64,000 nt of DNA from assembly GCA_029559475.1 (NCBI GenBank), contig JAKQBN010000030.1:10756-74755 (forward strand). The letters run 5' to 3'. The position numbers were made by a program, and so were the translations under genes. This DNA is from a bacterium. Its GTDB lineage: Bacteria > UBA4055. The notes under the pieces were generated by a model. It worked only from the letters and a program-made list of their open reading frames with translations. It was not told where the DNA came from and searched no databases. Below, piece after piece: positions 36,968 to 44,620 of this stretch. Position 1 is the stretch's first letter, and every line of letters begins with the position of its first letter.

Positions 36968-38209
36968 CTAATCTTCAAATATGATCTGCGGTTTACCTTT
37001 ATTCTGTTCGACCCTGATAATTTCAAGAATTTTATCATACGAGTACGATCCTTTCAGCTTCGGATTGAACCTGCATCGTACCGAAACTTCATTTTTCTCA
37101 ACTTCCTTATCGCCGACGACAAGTATCAGAGGAATTTTCCGCAATTCCGCATTCCTGATCCGGCTGCTCAGAGAATCATTATTGTCTGAAAGTTCTACAC
37201 GCATATCTTCCTCTTTCAGCTTGCGCACCAGTTTTTTGCAGTGATCCGAACGGTTACTGTTTATATCGATAACCATTACCTGCATCGGAGACAGCCAGAA
37301 CGGCAGACTGCCCGAATAGAATTCCAGCAGTACGGCTATGAACCTTTCAATACTTCCGAACAAAGCACGGTGCACAAGATACGGAACATGGAATTTTCCG
37401 TCAGAACCGCGGTATTCCATCTTGAATTTACCGGGCAGGTTGAAATCGAACTGAACAGTGCTGCACTGCCATTCATTTCCCGCGAAATCGATTATCTTGA
37501 TATCTATTTTAGGCCCGTAAAAAGCACCGCCGCCTTCATCGATCTCATATTCCAGTCCGACTTCATTTACAGCTTTTTTCAAATGTTCAACCGCCATTTC
37601 CCAGTCTGAATCACTGCCTATAGCTTTCTCGGCCGGTTTAGTAGCTATATAAGCCTTGAACTTATTCAGCCCGAAAGCCCTGAGAACATAAAGGCTGAAC
37701 TTGAGAGCACGGAGTATCTCGCCGTAGATCTGATCCTTACTGCAGATAATATGCGCGTCATCCTGAACAAAACCTCTCACCCTTTTCAGCCCGTGCAGAG
37801 CACCGGAGAACTCATACCGGTAAACAGTGCCGAATTCCGCATACCTGACCGGCAGTTCCTGATATGACCTCTGCCTGTTCTTAAAGATCATCAGATGAAA
37901 AGGACAATTCATCGGCTTAAGATAATATTCTTCCTCATCTATCTTTATCGGAGCATACATATTTTCCTTAAAGAAATCCAGATGCCCTGAAGTTTTCCAC
38001 AAACCTGCCTTACCGATATGAGGAGAATAAACCCATTCATAGCCGTTTTGCAAATGAGCCTTCTGACTGAACCTTTCAAGCTCGTACCTTATGACACTTC
38101 CGTTCGGGTGAAAAGACACAAGACCCGCTCCGACTTCCTCTGAAAAACTATACAGATCAAGCTCTTTTCCAAGTTTGCGATGATCCCTGTTTTCGATAAT
38201 ATTCTTCAT
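36968..38209 (-). CDS. thrS: threonine--tRNA ligase paralog lacking N-terminal TGS/editing domains (catalytic class II core + anticodon-binding domain only)
   Basis: The product begins RDHRKLGKELDLY, which corresponds to about residue 240 of canonical ThrRS. Class II motifs and a C-terminal anticodon-binding domain are present. Upstream stop codons occur in all frames, so the 413-aa length is genuine. Confidence 0.75.
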   Translation of the reverse strand: MKNIIENRDHRKLGKELDLYSFSEEVGAGLVSFHPNGSVIRYELERFSQKAHLQNGYEWVYSPHIGKAGLWKTSGHLDFFKENMYAPIKIDEEEYYLKPMNCPFHLMIFKNRQRSYQELPVRYAEFGTVYRYEFSGALHGLKRVRGFVQDDAHIICSKDQIYGEILRALKFSLYVLRAFGLNKFKAYIATKPAEKAIGSDSDWEMAVEHLKKAVNEVGLEYEIDEGGGAFYGPKIDIKIIDFAGNEWQCSTVQFDFNLPGKFKMEYRGSDGKFHVPYLVHRALFGSIERFIAVLLEFYSGSLPFWLSPMQVMVIDINSNRSDHCKKLVRKLKEEDMRVELSDNNDSLSSRIRNAELRKIPLILVVGDKEVEKNEVSVRCRFNPKLKGSYSYDKILEIIRVEQNKGKPQIIFED

Positions 38210-38461: not shown

Positions 38462-39397
38462 TTATTTATACTCATTTAGCTTGCTTAATAATTCAACAGC
38501 CTCGATCCCGAACTTAGAAAATCCGAACCATTTCTTTCCAAGATCTTTTAATGATGCACCGAAATGATACACATCCGAGTCGTCAATAATTATAAATCTG
38601 TCGTGCGATTTTTTGAATATTCTTATTTCAATCGGAAAATACTGCTCGCTGAATTTTTCTATGTCAAGTTTTAGCTGTGGTGAAACCGATTGAGTCAGGA
38701 TCGTTACTTTTACATTCTTGTTTACTTTTACGAGAAGAACCAGAACAGTATCGTCAATATAATTGTCTATGATCAACACCGATTTCTCAGCTCTTCGAAA
38801 CAAATCAGACACAAACTTGTATGCATCGAATATCTGACCGTCAAAGAATATCCCTTGCTTTGGCTGTAATTCCTTACTTTCAAGCGCATTGAATAGTTTA
38901 TCTAATTTAATATCATTTTCAATCAATTTTACTTCAACTCGATCCAATCTCTGAAATACTTGAGCATTTGACTGTATGAATTTACGCATCTCGACAAATG
39001 CTTTCATAATTTTCACACTGATTATTATTGCCGTTTCGCTCCTTAATACAGCTGATAACATTGCAACACCCTGTTCTGTGTAAACGAATGGCAAATATTT
39101 TGTGTGCCTACCTTTTGCATCCTCTATGATCACAATTTGTGATCTTAAAGAGTTCTTGTGCCTATTTTCGCTCTTTATACAAGATTTTATATTTTCATAT
39201 TCTGATTCATCAAGTTGGAAACAAAAATCATCAGGAAACCTTTCCTTGTTCCTTTTAACAGCCTGATTAAGAATCCTTGTCTCCACTCCGTAAAGTTCAG
39301 CCAAATCTCTATCCAGCATCACCTGATATCCCCTAATAGAATAAATCCTGTCTCGGATTACCCCCTCATCAAATTTTTCCAATTCATTACCTGTCAT
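38462..39397 (-). CDS. ORF6N (KilA-N-like) domain-containing protein
   Basis: The N-terminal ORF6N signature is IRDRIYSIRGYQVMLDRDLAELYGVETRILNQAVKRNKERFPDDFCFQL. The internal ATG at 39397 is preferred because GGGAG lies upstream. Confidence 0.7.
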   Translation of the reverse strand: MTGNELEKFDEGVIRDRIYSIRGYQVMLDRDLAELYGVETRILNQAVKRNKERFPDDFCFQLDESEYENIKSCIKSENRHKNSLRSQIVIIEDAKGRHTKYLPFVYTEQGVAMLSAVLRSETAIIISVKIMKAFVEMRKFIQSNAQVFQRLDRVEVKLIENDIKLDKLFNALESKELQPKQGIFFDGQIFDAYKFVSDLFRRAEKSVLIIDNYIDDTVLVLLVKVNKNVKVTILTQSVSPQLKLDIEKFSEQYFPIEIRIFKKSHDRFIIIDDSDVYHFGASLKDLGKKWFGFSKFGIEAVELLSKLNEYK

Positions 39398-39436
39398 AAA
39401 TAATTCTCCCGATAACATTTTAGGCAATATAACACG

Positions 39437-40187: not shown

Positions 40188-40590
40188 TTATTTGTGATTG
40201 AACTTAGTAAAATATTCGTCAATTTCTGGCCTTAATTCAATTCCTACTCGCTCAAAGATGTCCAACAAATCATTATAAGTACCTTCGCCACCTAAAAAAT
40301 CCCAGAATTCATGAGCTACTTTTAATTCATTCTCAAGATCAAGCATACCAGCCATAGTCCATCTGGTATACGGTTTCGGCTCATAAGGATTATATGGAAT
40401 TGCAATTAAAGTATTTACATTGGCTTGAGGATTATCAGCAAGTACGCAAGCAGTCCATTGAAGTAATGTTCTTTTAAATTCAATAAATCCGCCTTTATTA
40501 GGCTTTGCAGTTTTTATATCGAATAAAAATAATTCTCCTGAAATAGTGACATTTGTCCCTTCGCGAAGTGTTATATTACAAATATAAGGC
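40188..40590 (-). pseudogene. start-less ORF remnant (about 133 codons, no ATG/GTG/TTG), possible fragment of a PD-(D/E)XK-like nuclease
   Basis: I translated this by hand: ...TLREGTNVTISGELFLFDIKTAKPNKGGFIEFKRTLLQW...EFWDFLGGEGTYNDLLDIFERVGIELRPEIDEYFTKFNHK*. Stops occur in all frames upstream, and it abuts the divergent start of the HTH-repeat gene. Confidence 0.35.
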
Positions 40591-40606
40591 TAAACTGGAG
40601 GGGAAA

Positions 40607-41452
40607 ATGACAAAAAAGGAAACAGAGCTTCAAAGATACATAGATAAGACAAGCGAGGGAGAGTTTCTGTACGAGTTGGCAAATTCGTATGAGCTCTCCC
40701 CGATTTTAAGTAAAAACATCCTTCAAACAGCCAAAACCTGCCTTCTCCAAAGCAAAGTACTTCAAGCCGGACAGATAGAATATCACTGCGTAAGTATCGA
40801 TGAAAAAAGCGGGAAGCAGATGCTTGATATGAGCAAGATAAAAGTTATTCTGACTCTAAAGGACGAAATCGAAGATATAACTACTTTAAGCGTGGAAGGC
40901 AGAAGCGTATATCGTCAGAATAAAATTCAAAGGATGACTGATGAGGCTATAGCGCAAAACGGCATATTAAGTCAGGAAGATCTTAGTATGCTGCTGAATG
41001 TAAGCGTGAGAACGATCAAGCGTGATATTCGTAGAATAAAGATCAGGAATATTGAAGTGATCACCCGCGGGACCTATCACAATATAGGAAGGGGACAAAC
41101 GCACAAGACACGAATAATCAGCCTATTTCTTGAAGGATGCACATATACTGACATCAAGTGGAAAACGCATCACAGCACAGGATCAATCAAGAGGTATCTT
41201 GATAGCTTCGGAAAAGTTCTGATGTGTGTGGAGTATGGTATTAAGGACAAGTCAGAGATACGATCTGTAACAAATCTGTCTGAATATCTGATATGCCAGT
41301 ACCTGGATATACTCAAATCTGCAGAAAAAAGTAAAGTGAAATCAGAAAACTTGGATATGCTTAAACAGCAACTGTCATATAGATATGGTTCAAAAAAAAC
41401 GATCGTTTACGATGGTCTGAGAGCGGAAGCTACGACAGGAGGCTGGAAATGA
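40607..41452 (+). CDS. hypothetical protein with three tandem helix-turn-helix-like modules (paralog 1)
   Basis: The ATG at 40607 is preferred because GGAGGGGAAA lies upstream. Repeated modules include LSQEDLSMLLNVSVRTIKRDI, YTDIKWKTHHSTGSIKRYL and SEIRSVTNLSEYLICQYL. Confidence 0.5.
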   Translation: MTKKETELQRYIDKTSEGEFLYELANSYELSPILSKNILQTAKTCLLQSKVLQAGQIEYHCVSIDEKSGKQMLDMSKIKVILTLKDEIEDITTLSVEGRSVYRQNKIQRMTDEAIAQNGILSQEDLSMLLNVSVRTIKRDIRRIKIRNIEVITRGTYHNIGRGQTHKTRIISLFLEGCTYTDIKWKTHHSTGSIKRYLDSFGKVLMCVEYGIKDKSEIRSVTNLSEYLICQYLDILKSAEKSKVKSENLDMLKQQLSYRYGSKKTIVYDGLRAEATTGGWK

Positions 41453-42246
41453 ATCTGAACAATATACGGGACAGATATGAAAGCATAAACAAACGGAACT
41501 TCAGATCAGCTTTGATAAGCCTTTTAGAAAACGATTATAAAATTTTAGGATCAAGAAAAATCTTATCCATGCTTGCAGAGGACATTGAACAGCTTTATAA
41601 CGAATTTAATCCTAAAATATCTGAAGTCGGCTTTGGTGAGATCGTATTCAGGACAACAAAAGATGATGGTCAAAGACAAAGTTACGGTAAGAAGACAGAA
41701 GATTATGCGTCAACGACAGTGATACTGCCATTGATAACAAAAGATGATGTTGAGCGCAGAATTTATTTCCGCAAAGGCGACAGAAACAGTAATTACGAGC
41801 ACAGAGAGTCAAGGGACATAGAAACTATGGTAAGGCTAATCAAAAGCGCAAAGGAGCAAGGCGGATTACTCACCGGAGCGGAAGTAAGTGTTCTGATGAA
41901 CAGAAGCCTCAGTACCATCAGAAAATATCTTGATGCTTACAGGAATAAAACAGGTGAAATACTTCCGCTGAAAGGATATGTGCTTGATCAAGGCAGCCTG
42001 CCTACTCATAAAGGCATAATCGTATCGCTTTATGAGCAGGGAATATCTCCGTCCGATATTGTTTTAAAAACTTCACACAGCCAAAGCGCGGTTGATCGCT
42101 ACATCGGGCAATACGATCAGATTAAGAAGCTCATTAAAAAAGGTTTAAATGAGCGTGAAATTAAAGATATTACGAGAAGGTCATTGAAAATCATCAGAGA
42201 ATATGTTAAATTGTATAAACAATTAAATCCGGAAGTGAAAAAATGA
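41449..42246 (+). CDS. hypothetical protein with three tandem helix-turn-helix-like modules (paralog 2)
   Basis: It aligns by eye with paralog 1 over about 130 residues (GxLxxxExSxLxNxSxxTIxxxL...THKxxIxSL...DIxxKTxHSxxxxxRYx). It is coupled to paralog 1 by an ATGA overlap. Confidence 0.5.
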   Translation: MNLNNIRDRYESINKRNFRSALISLLENDYKILGSRKILSMLAEDIEQLYNEFNPKISEVGFGEIVFRTTKDDGQRQSYGKKTEDYASTTVILPLITKDDVERRIYFRKGDRNSNYEHRESRDIETMVRLIKSAKEQGGLLTGAEVSVLMNRSLSTIRKYLDAYRNKTGEILPLKGYVLDQGSLPTHKGIIVSLYEQGISPSDIVLKTSHSQSAVDRYIGQYDQIKKLIKKGLNEREIKDITRRSLKIIREYVKLYKQLNPEVKK

Positions 42247-42249
42247 AGA

Positions 42250-42729
42250 TTATTTACTACCGCGCTTCGCTTGCTTACTTCTCAGGGGACAAATGTCACT
42301 AATGTAAAAAGATTCAAGCATGACATCTACTTTTGTAGCCTTAACAACTTTCATCTTACCTTTCTGGCAAACTTTTCTTATCGCATTGATTTCTTCGGGT
42401 TTACAAGGTTTTACATTTGCTGCGGTTAAATCATCCATAATATCTTGAATTACTCTTTGAGCATCTTCACTGATATTAACACCAGCTTTAGCTTGTGCCG
42501 TTGCGTTTTTGAAATTTTTACTGGCTAATGCGAGTGCGACAGGTTCAAATATGCTGGTACCAAAATTTGTATTCAATGATTGAATAAAAGAGAACAATGC
42601 GATCCTGTCACTGCCTAGTAGTCTTGTATGGAACGGCATTGAAGCTGGTTCTGGATTATAATTTTTGAATTTATGCCTCAAGCTATTTCTTAAGACATCT
42701 TCTATTTGTTTTATTTGATTACTATCCAT
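42250..42729 (-). CDS. hypothetical 159-aa protein co-transcribed downstream of the DNA methyltransferase (candidate restriction/specificity partner)
   Basis: It starts 33 nt after the MTase stop on the same strand. I did not recognise any motif family. Confidence 0.35.
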   Translation of the reverse strand: MDSNQIKQIEDVLRNSLRHKFKNYNPEPASMPFHTRLLGSDRIALFSFIQSLNTNFGTSIFEPVALALASKNFKNATAQAKAGVNISEDAQRVIQDIMDDLTAANVKPCKPEEINAIRKVCQKGKMKVVKATKVDVMLESFYISDICPLRSKQAKRGSK

Positions 42730-42762
42730 TTCAAGTTATCTCAAGTAAGTTAGGGTTTAGAA

Positions 42763-44388
42763 TTACTTCCTCTTCAAGTGAAATATTATTTCCGAGTAGG
42801 CACTTTTATCTCTTTCGGTACGGTTGAGCACTGGTCTTTTGAACTGATTTACAATTTTCATATCTGCATTATCTGCGATAGTTGGATATAAATTATATTT
42901 ATCGTTTGCTACGAGAAACACATCATAATCCTTTACAAAGTACTTTTTTACATTGTTCAAAACATCGCTTATGCCTTTAACATAGCTATCTTTAGCTTCT
43001 CGGCCTTGACCTTTGAAAAGAGGTCCGATTTCAAGCTCGTCATTCCTGTCGAATCCGAAAAGATCATAAGCGTAGGCATGCTGTTCATGATAATCAATTA
43101 AACCTACATAAGGAGGTGATGAAAATATCCCGTTTATTTTCTTTTTTGAAACAAGTTTTGAAAATTCAGGATCCAATTTTTTTAAACCGTTGACTATATC
43201 AATCGTTCTGCTGTCACCGGTCAGGCAAGTATGAAATGTTTCTTTTTTTAGCTTTGAGTAATCTTCTAAGCGCTTTACAGTGTCTTTAGCGTATCTTTCC
43301 CACCAGCTCAAAATTGAAAATAAAGGTTTGCATATTTTACCGTGTTTTGAACAGTAATATGTCGTCGTTACAGGCTCGAAAAGAGTTGCAAGATCTGCAT
43401 GAGTAGTTGCTCTGCAACTTCTGATAGTCCTGCTTAATATTACGCTTACAATTTCTTTCGTATCCGAATTAGCTATTTTCTTTATCTCATTGTGCACTAT
43501 TTCAATTTCTTCTCTGATGTGCTCAGAATACCATTTGTCGAGAAATGAGCCTTCTTTGCTTTGTCGCTGCTTGATTTTATACTCAGCTACTAATTTTTTG
43601 AAGATCGGTAAGAACTCTTTTTCTTTTTCAGCTCCATAAGTATCTTCATCTACCATTTTACGCTTAATATTGTAACGGTATTCTGGAGACGGAAAATGTT
43701 TTAGATTAAAATCATATAGCTCGTGTAATAATTTTTCTTCAAATTCTACAGTATGATTATCTTTCAAGAATAATTTTAGTTTTTTAGAAATTTCGCTTAT
43801 AACTTTTAGCACTTCATCATAGTTATAGTCTTTAACTTTACATTTAGCTATCATAGAATTGAATGCTGAAACATCAATCCCTATTGAATGGATTCCAAGT
43901 TCGCAAGCTTGTACCATTGTAGTGCCGCTGCCTGAAAAAGGATCGAGTACTATATCACCTTGTTTGAAGTAAATCTCTTTTTTGAAATCATCAACATGCG
44001 CGTCTAAAAAATACTCAACCAGTTGAGGTATAAATTTTCCTTTGTAGGGATGTAATCTGTGAACATGTTTTGTTGTGTCTGATTCTTTATACTGATCAAA
44101 TGACAATGCCCAATTAAGATCATTTCCAAGTTCTTTTTTCCATGTATCTACTCTGGATTCCTTAAAACCCGCATAATATTCGGCAAGCTCTTCTTTAACA
44201 ACCATAGTCGATCCATTTTCGCCAATTTTTTTTATTCTACCGTACTGGACTAAATAAGATATATTTGAAGGTGTTACATTTTTCCCTAGTAAATCTGAAG
44301 CCCAATCGCTTGCTTCCTTTATTGACAATAATTCTGACATTTTCTTTACCTGCTTCATGTGCAATTTATCTGTCTTTTCAATCTTCAT
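42763..44388 (-). CDS. DNA methyltransferase (N6-adenine or N4-cytosine type; FxGSGTT motif I and SPPY motif IV) with N-terminal HTH-like segment
   Basis: The HPYKGKFxPQLVEYFL...GDIVLDPFSGSGTTMVQACELG motif lies at about aa 120-165, and IFSSPPYVGLIDY at about aa 420. The N-terminal 70 aa are HTH-like. Confidence 0.8.
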   Translation of the reverse strand: MKIEKTDKLHMKQVKKMSELLSIKEASDWASDLLGKNVTPSNISYLVQYGRIKKIGENGSTMVVKEELAEYYAGFKESRVDTWKKELGNDLNWALSFDQYKESDTTKHVHRLHPYKGKFIPQLVEYFLDAHVDDFKKEIYFKQGDIVLDPFSGSGTTMVQACELGIHSIGIDVSAFNSMIAKCKVKDYNYDEVLKVISEISKKLKLFLKDNHTVEFEEKLLHELYDFNLKHFPSPEYRYNIKRKMVDEDTYGAEKEKEFLPIFKKLVAEYKIKQRQSKEGSFLDKWYSEHIREEIEIVHNEIKKIANSDTKEIVSVILSRTIRSCRATTHADLATLFEPVTTTYYCSKHGKICKPLFSILSWWERYAKDTVKRLEDYSKLKKETFHTCLTGDSRTIDIVNGLKKLDPEFSKLVSKKKINGIFSSPPYVGLIDYHEQHAYAYDLFGFDRNDELEIGPLFKGQGREAKDSYVKGISDVLNNVKKYFVKDYDVFLVANDKYNLYPTIADNADMKIVNQFKRPVLNRTERDKSAYSEIIFHLKRK

Positions 44389-44437
44389 AAACGTTTCTAA
44401 TTTACTCTAAACAAGTTGTTTTTACAAACAAAATTCC

Positions 44438-44620
44438 TTATTTATTTTCAAGTATTGTTTCATTTATAGAAGATTCTATAGCATCAAACCAATCTATTTT
44501 TTCTGCAATCACATCTTTTATCTTTAAAATTTCAGACGAATTTAATTTTCTTCCCAATACTTCTTCAGATACATTCTGAACATCTTCATCTGTTAATTCA
44601 TAAACAACATTCTTTCTCAT
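44438..44620 (-). CDS. hypothetical small acidic protein (60 aa)
   Basis: The ORF lies between ispF and the MTase gene on the same strand. No motif was recognised. Confidence 0.25.
   Translation of the reverse strand: MRKNVVYELTDEDVQNVSEEVLGRKLNSSEILKIKDVIAEKIDWFDAIESSINETILENK

Follow-up and report, generated by a model that had tools for sequence, protein, structure and literature searches.

A restriction-modification operon split by a mobile element

The window analyzed here, meaning the whole 64,000-nucleotide stretch taken from contig JAKQBN010000030.1 of the bacterial assembly GCA_029559475.1, carries between positions 40188 and 44620 a cluster in which a DNA methyltransferase gene (M) is followed by a 159-aa open reading frame (ORF), a pair of overlapping paralogous genes on the opposite strand, here called ORF-A and ORF-B, and a start-less remnant (Table 1). 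We conclude that a single restriction endonuclease gene (R) accounts for both the 159-aa ORF and the remnant, which are its two parts, and that the paralogs, both members of the Pfam family DUF1670 (PF07900), are the cargo of an insertion sequence (IS)-like element lodged between them. This joint reading, in which R is split and the element is mobile, target-specific, and from a family not yet described, we regard as highly probable.

Pfam places the 159-aa ORF on positions 2-140 of the 242 in the RE_TdeIII profile (PF09520; E=2.6e-43) and the remnant on positions 205-242 (E=1.6e-14); judged by these matches, the two are the N- and C-terminal parts of a single TdeIII-family restriction endonuclease gene. 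Excision of 40541-42305 yields a 258-aa R protein that is 82% identical, with 0 gaps, to the intact homolog P0122, and the junction was aligned to 40 intact homologs (75-81% identical, mostly 260 aa). The 1,765 bp of inserted DNA interrupt R after codon 141. On the plus strand the insertion point is ...CTCCTG^AAAAAG..., and in the protein it falls in the D...ELFLFDIK catalytic core, which is of the PD-(D/E)xK type (...VDVMLESF/SGELFLFDIK..., the slash marking the insertion point). Past the R-gene part, the reading frame of the 159-aa ORF enters the inserted element and meets a stop at 42250.

The methyltransferase carries the motifs that an earlier reading of this DNA, the original prediction, had named (FxGSGTT and SPPY, found as DPFSGSGTT and SSPPY) and matches both PF01555 in Pfam and the PADLOC type II methyltransferase model PDLC03249 (E=2.6e-240); the homology of its relatives starts only at residue 20, and the true start may be a later Met than that of the longest ORF. 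M followed by R is the usual type II order in the TdeIII family, and one relative (L143) has the operon intact, its M protein 68% identical over 522 aa and followed directly by a 260-aa R gene. TdeIII cuts GGNCC. By these comparisons the pair is an ordinary TdeIII-family system, both proteins being clear members arranged in the usual order, and differs in that its R gene is broken. Because neither R half has acquired further stop codons or frameshifts and M is intact, the insertion looks recent; the system has presumably been reduced to an orphan methyltransferase. The original prediction listed five ORFs in this interval, all of which are present, and described an R-M (restriction-modification) or defense locus, in which the proteins other than the methyltransferase matched no recognized family. 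The locus label survives in part: a type II M-R pair is there, intact in L143, and a candidate defense gene of family PDC-S05 lies nearby, but the five parts are not independent defense components, and families can be named, RE_TdeIII for the 159-aa protein and the remnant and DUF1670 for the paralogs.

Table 1. Features of the locus, in window coordinates
Feature	Position	Strand	Basis
IS-like element, 1,765 bp	40541..42305	+	Excision restores R gene; homologous elements multicopy with unrelated flanks
Left-end 14-bp near-palindrome GTGACATTTGTCCC, 5 nt from left tip	40546..40559	+	Terminal inverted repeat with 42286-42299
Right-end 14-bp near-palindrome GGGACAAATGTCAC, then TAATGT as right tip	42286..42299	+	Terminal inverted repeat
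Leader stem (predicted): inner half of left repeat pairs with ORF-A Shine-Dalgarno and start region	40550..40609	+	Minimum-free-energy folds
ORF-A, DUF1670, 281 aa	40607..41452	+	PF07900 E=2e-48; 936 homologs; AlphaFold 2 (AF2) model
A8 run, putative -1 frameshift or transcriptional-slippage site	41392..41399	+	T-CAA-AAA-AAA-CG; ORF-A frame TCA AAA AAA ACG
ORF-B, DUF1670, 265 aa	41449..42246	+	PF07900 E=4e-46
R gene 5' part, residues 1-141 and first base of codon 142	42306..42729	-	RE_TdeIII profile; alignment to 40 intact homologs; gap-free reconstruction
R gene 3' part, rest of codon 142 to residue 258 and stop	40188..40540	-	RE_TdeIII profile for last 55 aa; junction 40540 to 42306
159-aa ORF	42250-42729	-	33 nt downstream of 541-aa methyltransferase
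55-aa start-less remnant	40188-40355	-	ORF listing
Methyltransferase (type II, N4/N6 beta class), 541 aa as longest ORF	42763..44388	-	PF01555; PADLOC MTase_II PDLC03249
60-aa acidic ORF, between ispF and M gene	44438..44620	-	ORF listing

Boundaries, ends, and copies of the element

The boundaries of the element can slide by up to 3 nt (it starts with AAA, and its right flank starts with AAAAAG), and a 1,763-bp element with a 2-bp AA duplication is an equivalent description of the insertion. The data fit no target duplication or at most that of AA and exclude one of TA. A TA duplication was considered and rejected: the 261-aa ORF that this model restores matches the Pfam profile over its full length, but it contains the added residues YII, which are missing in 40/40 intact homologs. 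The element spans AAATA-GTGACATTTGTCCC... to ...GGGACAAATGTCAC-TAATGT, and a perfect 16-nt inverted repeat (TAGTGACATTTGTCCC, 40544-40559, with its complement at 42286-42301) brackets both DUF1670 genes; the 14-nt repeat core occurs exactly twice in 64 kb, both times at an element end. The same end design recurs in all related elements: AAATA precedes NNG[A/C]CA-NN-TG[T/G]CNN, and at the opposite end the inverted copy runs into TA-NN-GT. Within each element family this tail does not change, whereas the AARTRR after it differs among near-identical copies. The end palindromes are imperfect and lack compensatory changes, as in GTGCCAAATGTCCC, and the inverted repeat extends beyond them.

Scanning one genome per species identified 79 related loci, mainly from Ignavibacteriota, Melioribacteraceae, Bacteroidota, Cloacimonadota, and Delongbacteria metagenome-assembled genomes, with a few others. 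Five genomes hold 6, 4, 3, 2, and 2 copies of their element, with unrelated flanks every time, and the copies of a genome share 99.1-100% identity, except for one at 97.6% and one divergent copy (L064, 81.7%); the six in CAVXRO01 are 99.1-99.8% identical over ~1,761 bp, and the three in OY782765, a 6.9-Mb chromosome, are ~1,950 bp long and 97.6-100% identical. Homologs number 936 for ORF-A and 1,057 for ORF-B, and because most of them sit on contigs of ~1-2.3 kb, the element repeat appears to collapse in assembly; ORF-B homologs were absent from 72,556 plasmids and 50,697 phage records. A 22-kb contig of the same genome as the window (L145, Logan SRR5168926_88349) terminates inside ORF-A of the element, consistent with further copies breaking the assembly of that genome.

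The element is compact. In some relatives ORF-B ends within the right repeat, so that the element is essentially two genes and a ~60-nt leader, and the noncoding ends of some relatives are down to ~25-60 nt. The Melioribacteraceae elements (L008, L011, L012, and L013) are ~190 bp longer than the others owing to an AT-rich noncoding stretch before the right repeat, which in them lies ~240 nt from the ORF-B stop; other element families have a terminator-like stem-loop there instead. A guide RNA or other known noncoding RNA was considered and rejected: Rfam gave no match, and the position of the ORF-B stop within the right repeat of some relatives leaves no room for one. One pair of elements is mismatched at a single end: L064 (CAVYUP01) and L032 (CAVXRO01) share 97% identity in ORF-A, 99% in ORF-B, and matching right ends, but their left-end palindromes differ (ATGACATATGTCAC versus GTGCCATTTGGCAC), which points to a recombinant element or to end-sequence recognition that is relaxed.

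Insertion at the ends of type IX secretion cargo genes

Of the unique left junctions of the element, 53/54 (the exception is L009) are the 3' ends of genes with a type A C-terminal sorting domain of the type IX secretion system (T9SS), which end in ...SGVYFYRL..G.F..TKKMILMK; the flanking proteins exceed the TIGR04183 cutoff in 8/8 cases tested, and several reach profile position 70 of 72. The DUF1670 pair lies beside an R-M system in 0/79 related loci and is found instead at T9SS cargo genes, inserted at their 3' end, and the linkage to R-M genes implied by the original prediction is therefore not seen for the paralogs.

Uninterrupted T9SS genes in the same loci finish with Lys and a stop (AAA or AAG, with TAA, TGA, or TAG). 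At occupied sites, the left junction is almost always AAA-TA/G..., and the right is TA-NN-GT followed by AA[A/G]T[A/G][A/G], six bases that vary among ~99.7% identical copies as natural Lys-stop codons do. The element separates the penultimate codon of the host gene from its final Lys codon and brings its own AAA-TAG; because this takes the place of the final Lys-stop, the host T9SS protein is unchanged. That the conserved flanks might themselves be part of the element was ruled out, as they vary like natural codons among ~99.7% identical copies and, in the window, are bona fide R-gene sequence.

The element genes are always co-directional with the T9SS gene, that is, insertion has a single orientation, and the target extends over ~25-30 bp with the consensus AAGAAGATG-NTN-YTN-NTG^AARTRR. 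Several of the 21 unique right flanks (e.g., AAGTG, AAGTA, and AAATG) differ from the left AAATA, and the reverse is never seen. Since the right flanks vary and the left stays AAATA, both strands are probably exchanged at or within the leading AA, and since the asymmetry of the junctions is one-way, a staggered overlap of 6-8 bp that resolves at random is disfavored.

The R gene appears to have been hit by mistake. A weight matrix trained on the sites of other genomes ranks the R-gene site 46th of 124,412 window positions, and we therefore view this insertion as a look-alike, off-target event; it is antisense to R but, with respect to the target sequence, oriented in the canonical way. One of the three near-identical copies in OY782765 (L009:3924) is not at a T9SS gene end, and the frame upstream of it contains stop codons; on this evidence, it is a second off-target event like that in the window.

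Expression signals

As the longest ORF, ORF-A has 299 aa (40553-41452, plus strand), but the start at ATG 40607, which gives 281 aa, matches nearly all listed homologs. It overlaps ORF-B by ATGA. Pairing of the leader stem (Table 1) is found in 15/15 element families, with compensatory changes (CCCCUC:GAGGGG, CACCUC:GAGGUG, and CCUAUC:GAUAGG); single-sequence folds showed the stem, whereas RNAalifold, run on leaders aligned with MAFFT, missed it through misalignment. Such a stem would block ORF-A translation on transcripts that enter from outside the element. Leader stems that hide the ribosome-binding site (RBS) are a classical IS defense against read-through activation, known from IS10, IS50, and others. 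The loop of the stem, in the window (40570-40590) and in related leaders, contains the motifs TTATATTA and TTAAATTTG, similar to TAnnTTTG, the -7 promoter element of Bacteroidota; this may be the element's own promoter, placed so as to leave the 5' arm of the stem out of its transcripts.

An A8 or A9 run lies at an invariant Lys-Lys near the end of ORF-A in 21/21 distinct elements. ORF-B is in the -1 frame, which is open across the run in 19/19 elements with both ORFs intact, and the -1 frame peptide from the run to the ORF-B start, W..SGSYD(G/R)R, is kept in most families via synonymous codon changes, the L008-L012 family excepted. A shift at 41398 would yield a 546-aa ORF-A-B fusion with the predicted transframe peptide ...GSKKNDRLRWSESGSYDRRLE..., and relatives contain natural single-ORF fusions of two DUF1670 modules with 532-546 aa. 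These features are consistent with a programmed -1 shift that yields an A-B fusion. In the group of distant relatives P0386, P0397, P0398, and P0401 (930-952 aa) and P0493 (400 aa), polypeptides have at least three DUF1670 modules, and in one protein of the group a DUF1670 module is joined to a zinc ribbon of the CHC2 (DnaG-type) kind. Otherwise the long relatives hold further DUF1670 modules only, and fusion partners gave no clue to the chemistry; 2 to 4 modules are fused, with no known catalytic domain added or adjoining.

The DUF1670 proteins

Both proteins match PF07900 over its full length (164.9 bits for ORF-A and 157.6 bits for ORF-B, against a gathering cutoff of 25). At 50% identity, the family has ~925 representative clusters in a set of 1.84 billion proteins, and literature searches returned no relevant paper on DUF1670/PF07900 or on IS elements that target T9SS sorting domains. 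Between element families, ORF-B is consistently more conserved (63-87% identity) than ORF-A (48-76%).

The original prediction saw in each paralog three helix-turn-helix (HTH)-like modules, and the AlphaFold models bear this out, with one winged HTH and two further HTH units in each protein. The two models share one architecture (predicted local distance difference test, pLDDT, 78 and predicted template modeling score, pTM, 0.45 for ORF-A; pLDDT 73 and pTM 0.50 for ORF-B), in which three N-terminal helices are followed by a long beta-hairpin, a long helix, the winged HTH, a poorly modeled conserved loop, and the two remaining HTH units. Structural matches are at the HTH level only, with no RNase H fold in ORF-B. 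Neither protein matches a transposase, recombinase, or nuclease model in Pfam, NCBIfam, PADLOC, or PHROG, and none of the recognized transposase classes (DDE, DEDD, HUH, serine, or tyrosine) is matched: Pfam gives PF07900 and sub-threshold HTH families only, without rve/DDE, Y1_Tnp, or DEDD_Tnp. NCBIfam has no IS-family model for DUF1670 proteins, and the NCBI annotation pipeline consequently has no IS-family name for them.

Residue conservation was computed over 92 diverse family members (numbering for ORF-B/ORF-A). The conserved polar residues of the third HTH are H187/H166 (100%), K188/K167 (96%), H210/H189 (96%), R217/R196 (78%), and Y218/Y197 (98%); outside it are R129/R109 (93%), Q137/Q117 (88%), D180 (N159 in ORF-A; 85%), and Y252/Y232 (91%). 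Because the invariant residues stay constant while the DNA sites differ among families, they are candidates for catalysis.

A model for integration and its alternatives

We lean toward the view that DUF1670 itself is the catalyst of the element. A fuller version, which we put forward tentatively and as somewhat short of probable, is that DUF1670 modules make up an unrecognized class of DNA strand-transfer enzyme built from HTH units only, which acts as an A-B pseudo-dimer or four-module assembly, has a Tyr/His/Lys/Arg site in the third HTH, and carries out orientation-specific, duplication-free integration at a ~25-30-bp target read by protein; on this view, evolution has led the element that it drives to insert "silently" at the last codon of T9SS cargo genes. 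We posit that the active proteins would be ORF-A alone and the ORF-A-B fusion produced by -1 slippage at the A8/A9 run, as in IS1/IS3, and that at each end repeat ORF-A, ORF-B, and/or the fusion would form a pseudo-dimer bound to both half-sites. A pair of these units could then synapse the element ends, an arrangement that fits the four-module fusion proteins, while further HTH units would read the ~20-bp sorting-domain sequence and both strands would be cut and joined at AA. Our best guess for the nucleophile is the tyrosine Y218 (ORF-B)/Y197 (ORF-A), which the third HTH would assist through its invariant His-Lys, His, and Arg. Topoisomerase V reportedly has an HTH-based fold. It offers a precedent for an atypical, nonclassical fold with a tyrosine active site; a review describes its fold as unique (PMC7614492).

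Several observations weigh against this model. Both DUF1670 models look wholly like stacked HTH DNA binders (at the modest pLDDT of 73-78 and pTM of 0.45-0.50), and contacting the DNA backbone could be all that their conserved His, Lys, Arg, and Tyr do. An excised element would be expected to have the right-end/left-end junction ...CACTAATGT-AAATAGTGAC..., and the circle junction pattern CNNTANNGTAAATARNGNCANNTGNC has 0 matches in the 79 loci; its 63 matches in metagenomes are all due to chance, lacking the right-end palindrome, and the outcome as a whole is uninformative rather than negative evidence. The same searches found no tandem copies and no empty/occupied polymorphism. Finally, the left 5-mer is AAGTA in L054 (3133) and AGATA in L075 (3543) and L076 (1534), with the right junctions off-contig; these are either variants of the element or cases in which the host's own last codon was kept on the left.

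If the chemistry came from elsewhere, DUF1670 would bind the ends and the target of a mobile element and recruit a host Xer-type tyrosine recombinase, as integrative mobile elements exploiting Xer (IMEX) do, or an unlinked conventional transposase. The proteins, being HTH units only with no recognizable catalytic fold, suit such a role, as do the single orientation and the apparent lack of target duplication, which fit conservative site-specific recombination and are feasible for host recombinases. We nevertheless consider recruitment unlikely: the two genes fill the element almost wholly and are under strong purifying selection across hundreds of lineages, the family keeps its invariant His, Lys, His, Arg, and Tyr although the end sequences differ between element families, the fusions of 2-4 modules never come with or beside a known catalytic domain, and the end repeats, on inspection of their sequence, are unlike dif-type sites. 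Less probable still is a single-strand "peel and paste" reaction in the manner of IS200/IS605, in which the end palindromes would act as hairpins, insertion would take place in the bottom strand 3' of TATTT, and DUF1670 would be a functional HUH analog. An absence of target duplication would be explained, the palindromes are subterminal at a fixed 5 and 6 nt from the tips, the pentanucleotide TATTT is common to the target and the element end (CTATTT) on one strand, and two invariant His with Asp/Gln and one invariant Tyr could mimic a HUH site. Yet imperfect, uncompensated palindromes within a longer inverted repeat fit duplex binding by two subunits better, target recognition takes in ~20 more bases across the cut, which the IS608 rule leaves unexplained, and no HUH or Y1 profile is matched.

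The original prediction had proposed that the paralog pair and the 159-aa protein could be an undescribed set of effectors or regulators dedicated to the R-M or defense locus. R-M systems are often controlled by HTH proteins, and the genes do cluster with a methyltransferase near the PDC-S05 candidate defense gene. This proposal has become very hard to sustain, as the 159-aa ORF is a truncated restriction enzyme and the pair, encoded on the opposite strand and enclosed by inverted repeats, interrupts the R reading frame; the pair is not beside R-M genes in the 79 other loci, the intact L143 operon lacks it, and PADLOC-DB v2 gives no match for ORF-B and, for ORF-A, one weak match to a WYL model (E=0.0045, 32 residues).

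Relation to known mobile elements

The element behaves like an insertion sequence, one with an unrecognized enzyme and a new targeting strategy, and its parts recall several known systems. It resembles IS1 and IS3 in being compact (1.3-1.8 kb) with terminal inverted repeats, in its two overlapping ORFs, the second in the -1 frame, with an A-rich slippery run for an OrfAB fusion (here predicted from sequence alone), and in a leader structure that would mask the RBS in read-through transcripts. It differs from them in having no DDE/RNase H domain in either ORF, no target duplication of 3-4 bp or 8-9 bp, and a strict, long target used in a single orientation. With IS200/IS605 (IS608), it shares the apparent absence of target duplication (at most a 2-bp AA), subterminal palindromes, and insertion beside a short motif that resembles the end of the element, but in place of a HUH TnpA of 130-150 aa it encodes two large HTH proteins, their fold all HTH plus one beta-hairpin; its ends are true inverted repeats that resemble duplex dimer sites, and its target is ~20 bp longer. 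The inverted repeat, TA-flanked at first look, and weak, sub-threshold matches to HTH_23 and HTH_29 recall IS630/Tc1-mariner, whereas the TA duplication fails (three residues extra versus 40/40 homologs) and no DDE/D domain is present. Unlike IS110/IS1111, it has no DEDD_Tnp match and no guide (bridge or seek) RNA that matches Rfam. To topoisomerase V (type IC) and the CAP domain of Topo VI-A/Spo11, the resemblance is that of generic HTH units only, with no sequence relationship.

Similar in logic are Tn7, whose TnsD recognizes attTn7, and the integrases that use tRNA 3' ends, in that the conserved 3' end of a coding or RNA gene is recognized and the gene product is left intact. The "safe harbor" logic of Tn7 and of tRNA-targeting elements is well established, and the latter carry a replacement 3' end; the DUF1670 element similarly carries a replacement Lys-stop. 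In contrast to both, its target is a T9SS sorting signal, present many times per genome, instead of one essential gene, and it encodes no DDE, AAA+, or tyrosine-integrase proteins. Targeting the conserved last codons of a multicopy protein-sorting signal and supplying a replacement Lys-stop is a new "safe harbor" strategy.

At the locus itself, the "mystery proteins" are accounted for, the restriction enzyme having been knocked out by a mobile element, and DUF1670, a Pfam family absent from the literature searched, gains a mobile-element function. An IS family whose enzyme fits no known transposase class opens a new DNA-cutting and -joining chemistry, or a new scaffold for it, to testing; if the model is true, DUF1670 would represent a sixth kind of transposase/recombinase beside DDE, DEDD, HUH, serine, and tyrosine. 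For genome engineers, a compact protein able to recognize a long target and insert DNA in one orientation would be of interest. DUF1670 elements also probably break metagenome assemblies at T9SS genes in Ignavibacteriota, Bacteroidota, Cloacimonadota, and relatives.

Genes around the locus

The neighbors are as the original prediction described them: Pfam identifies GNAT, ORF6N, ispF (YgbB), and a threonyl-tRNA synthetase (ThrRS)-like gene. The 60-aa acidic ORF has no match in Pfam, PADLOC, NCBIfam, or PHROG; its homologs are on contigs of the same genome only, and the intact M-R operon of L143 has no counterpart of it upstream. The thrS-like gene (36968-38209, minus strand) encodes 413 aa only, with the class II core PF00587 and the anticodon-binding domain PF03129 and with no TGS or editing-domain family among its precomputed Pfam matches, and it may be a truncated ThrRS paralog. 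The ORF6N protein (321 aa; 38462-39427, minus strand) matches the PADLOC candidate defense family PDC-S05 over its full length (E=3.2e-118), and its gene lies ~2.8 kb from the broken R-M operon, with the GNAT gene between them.

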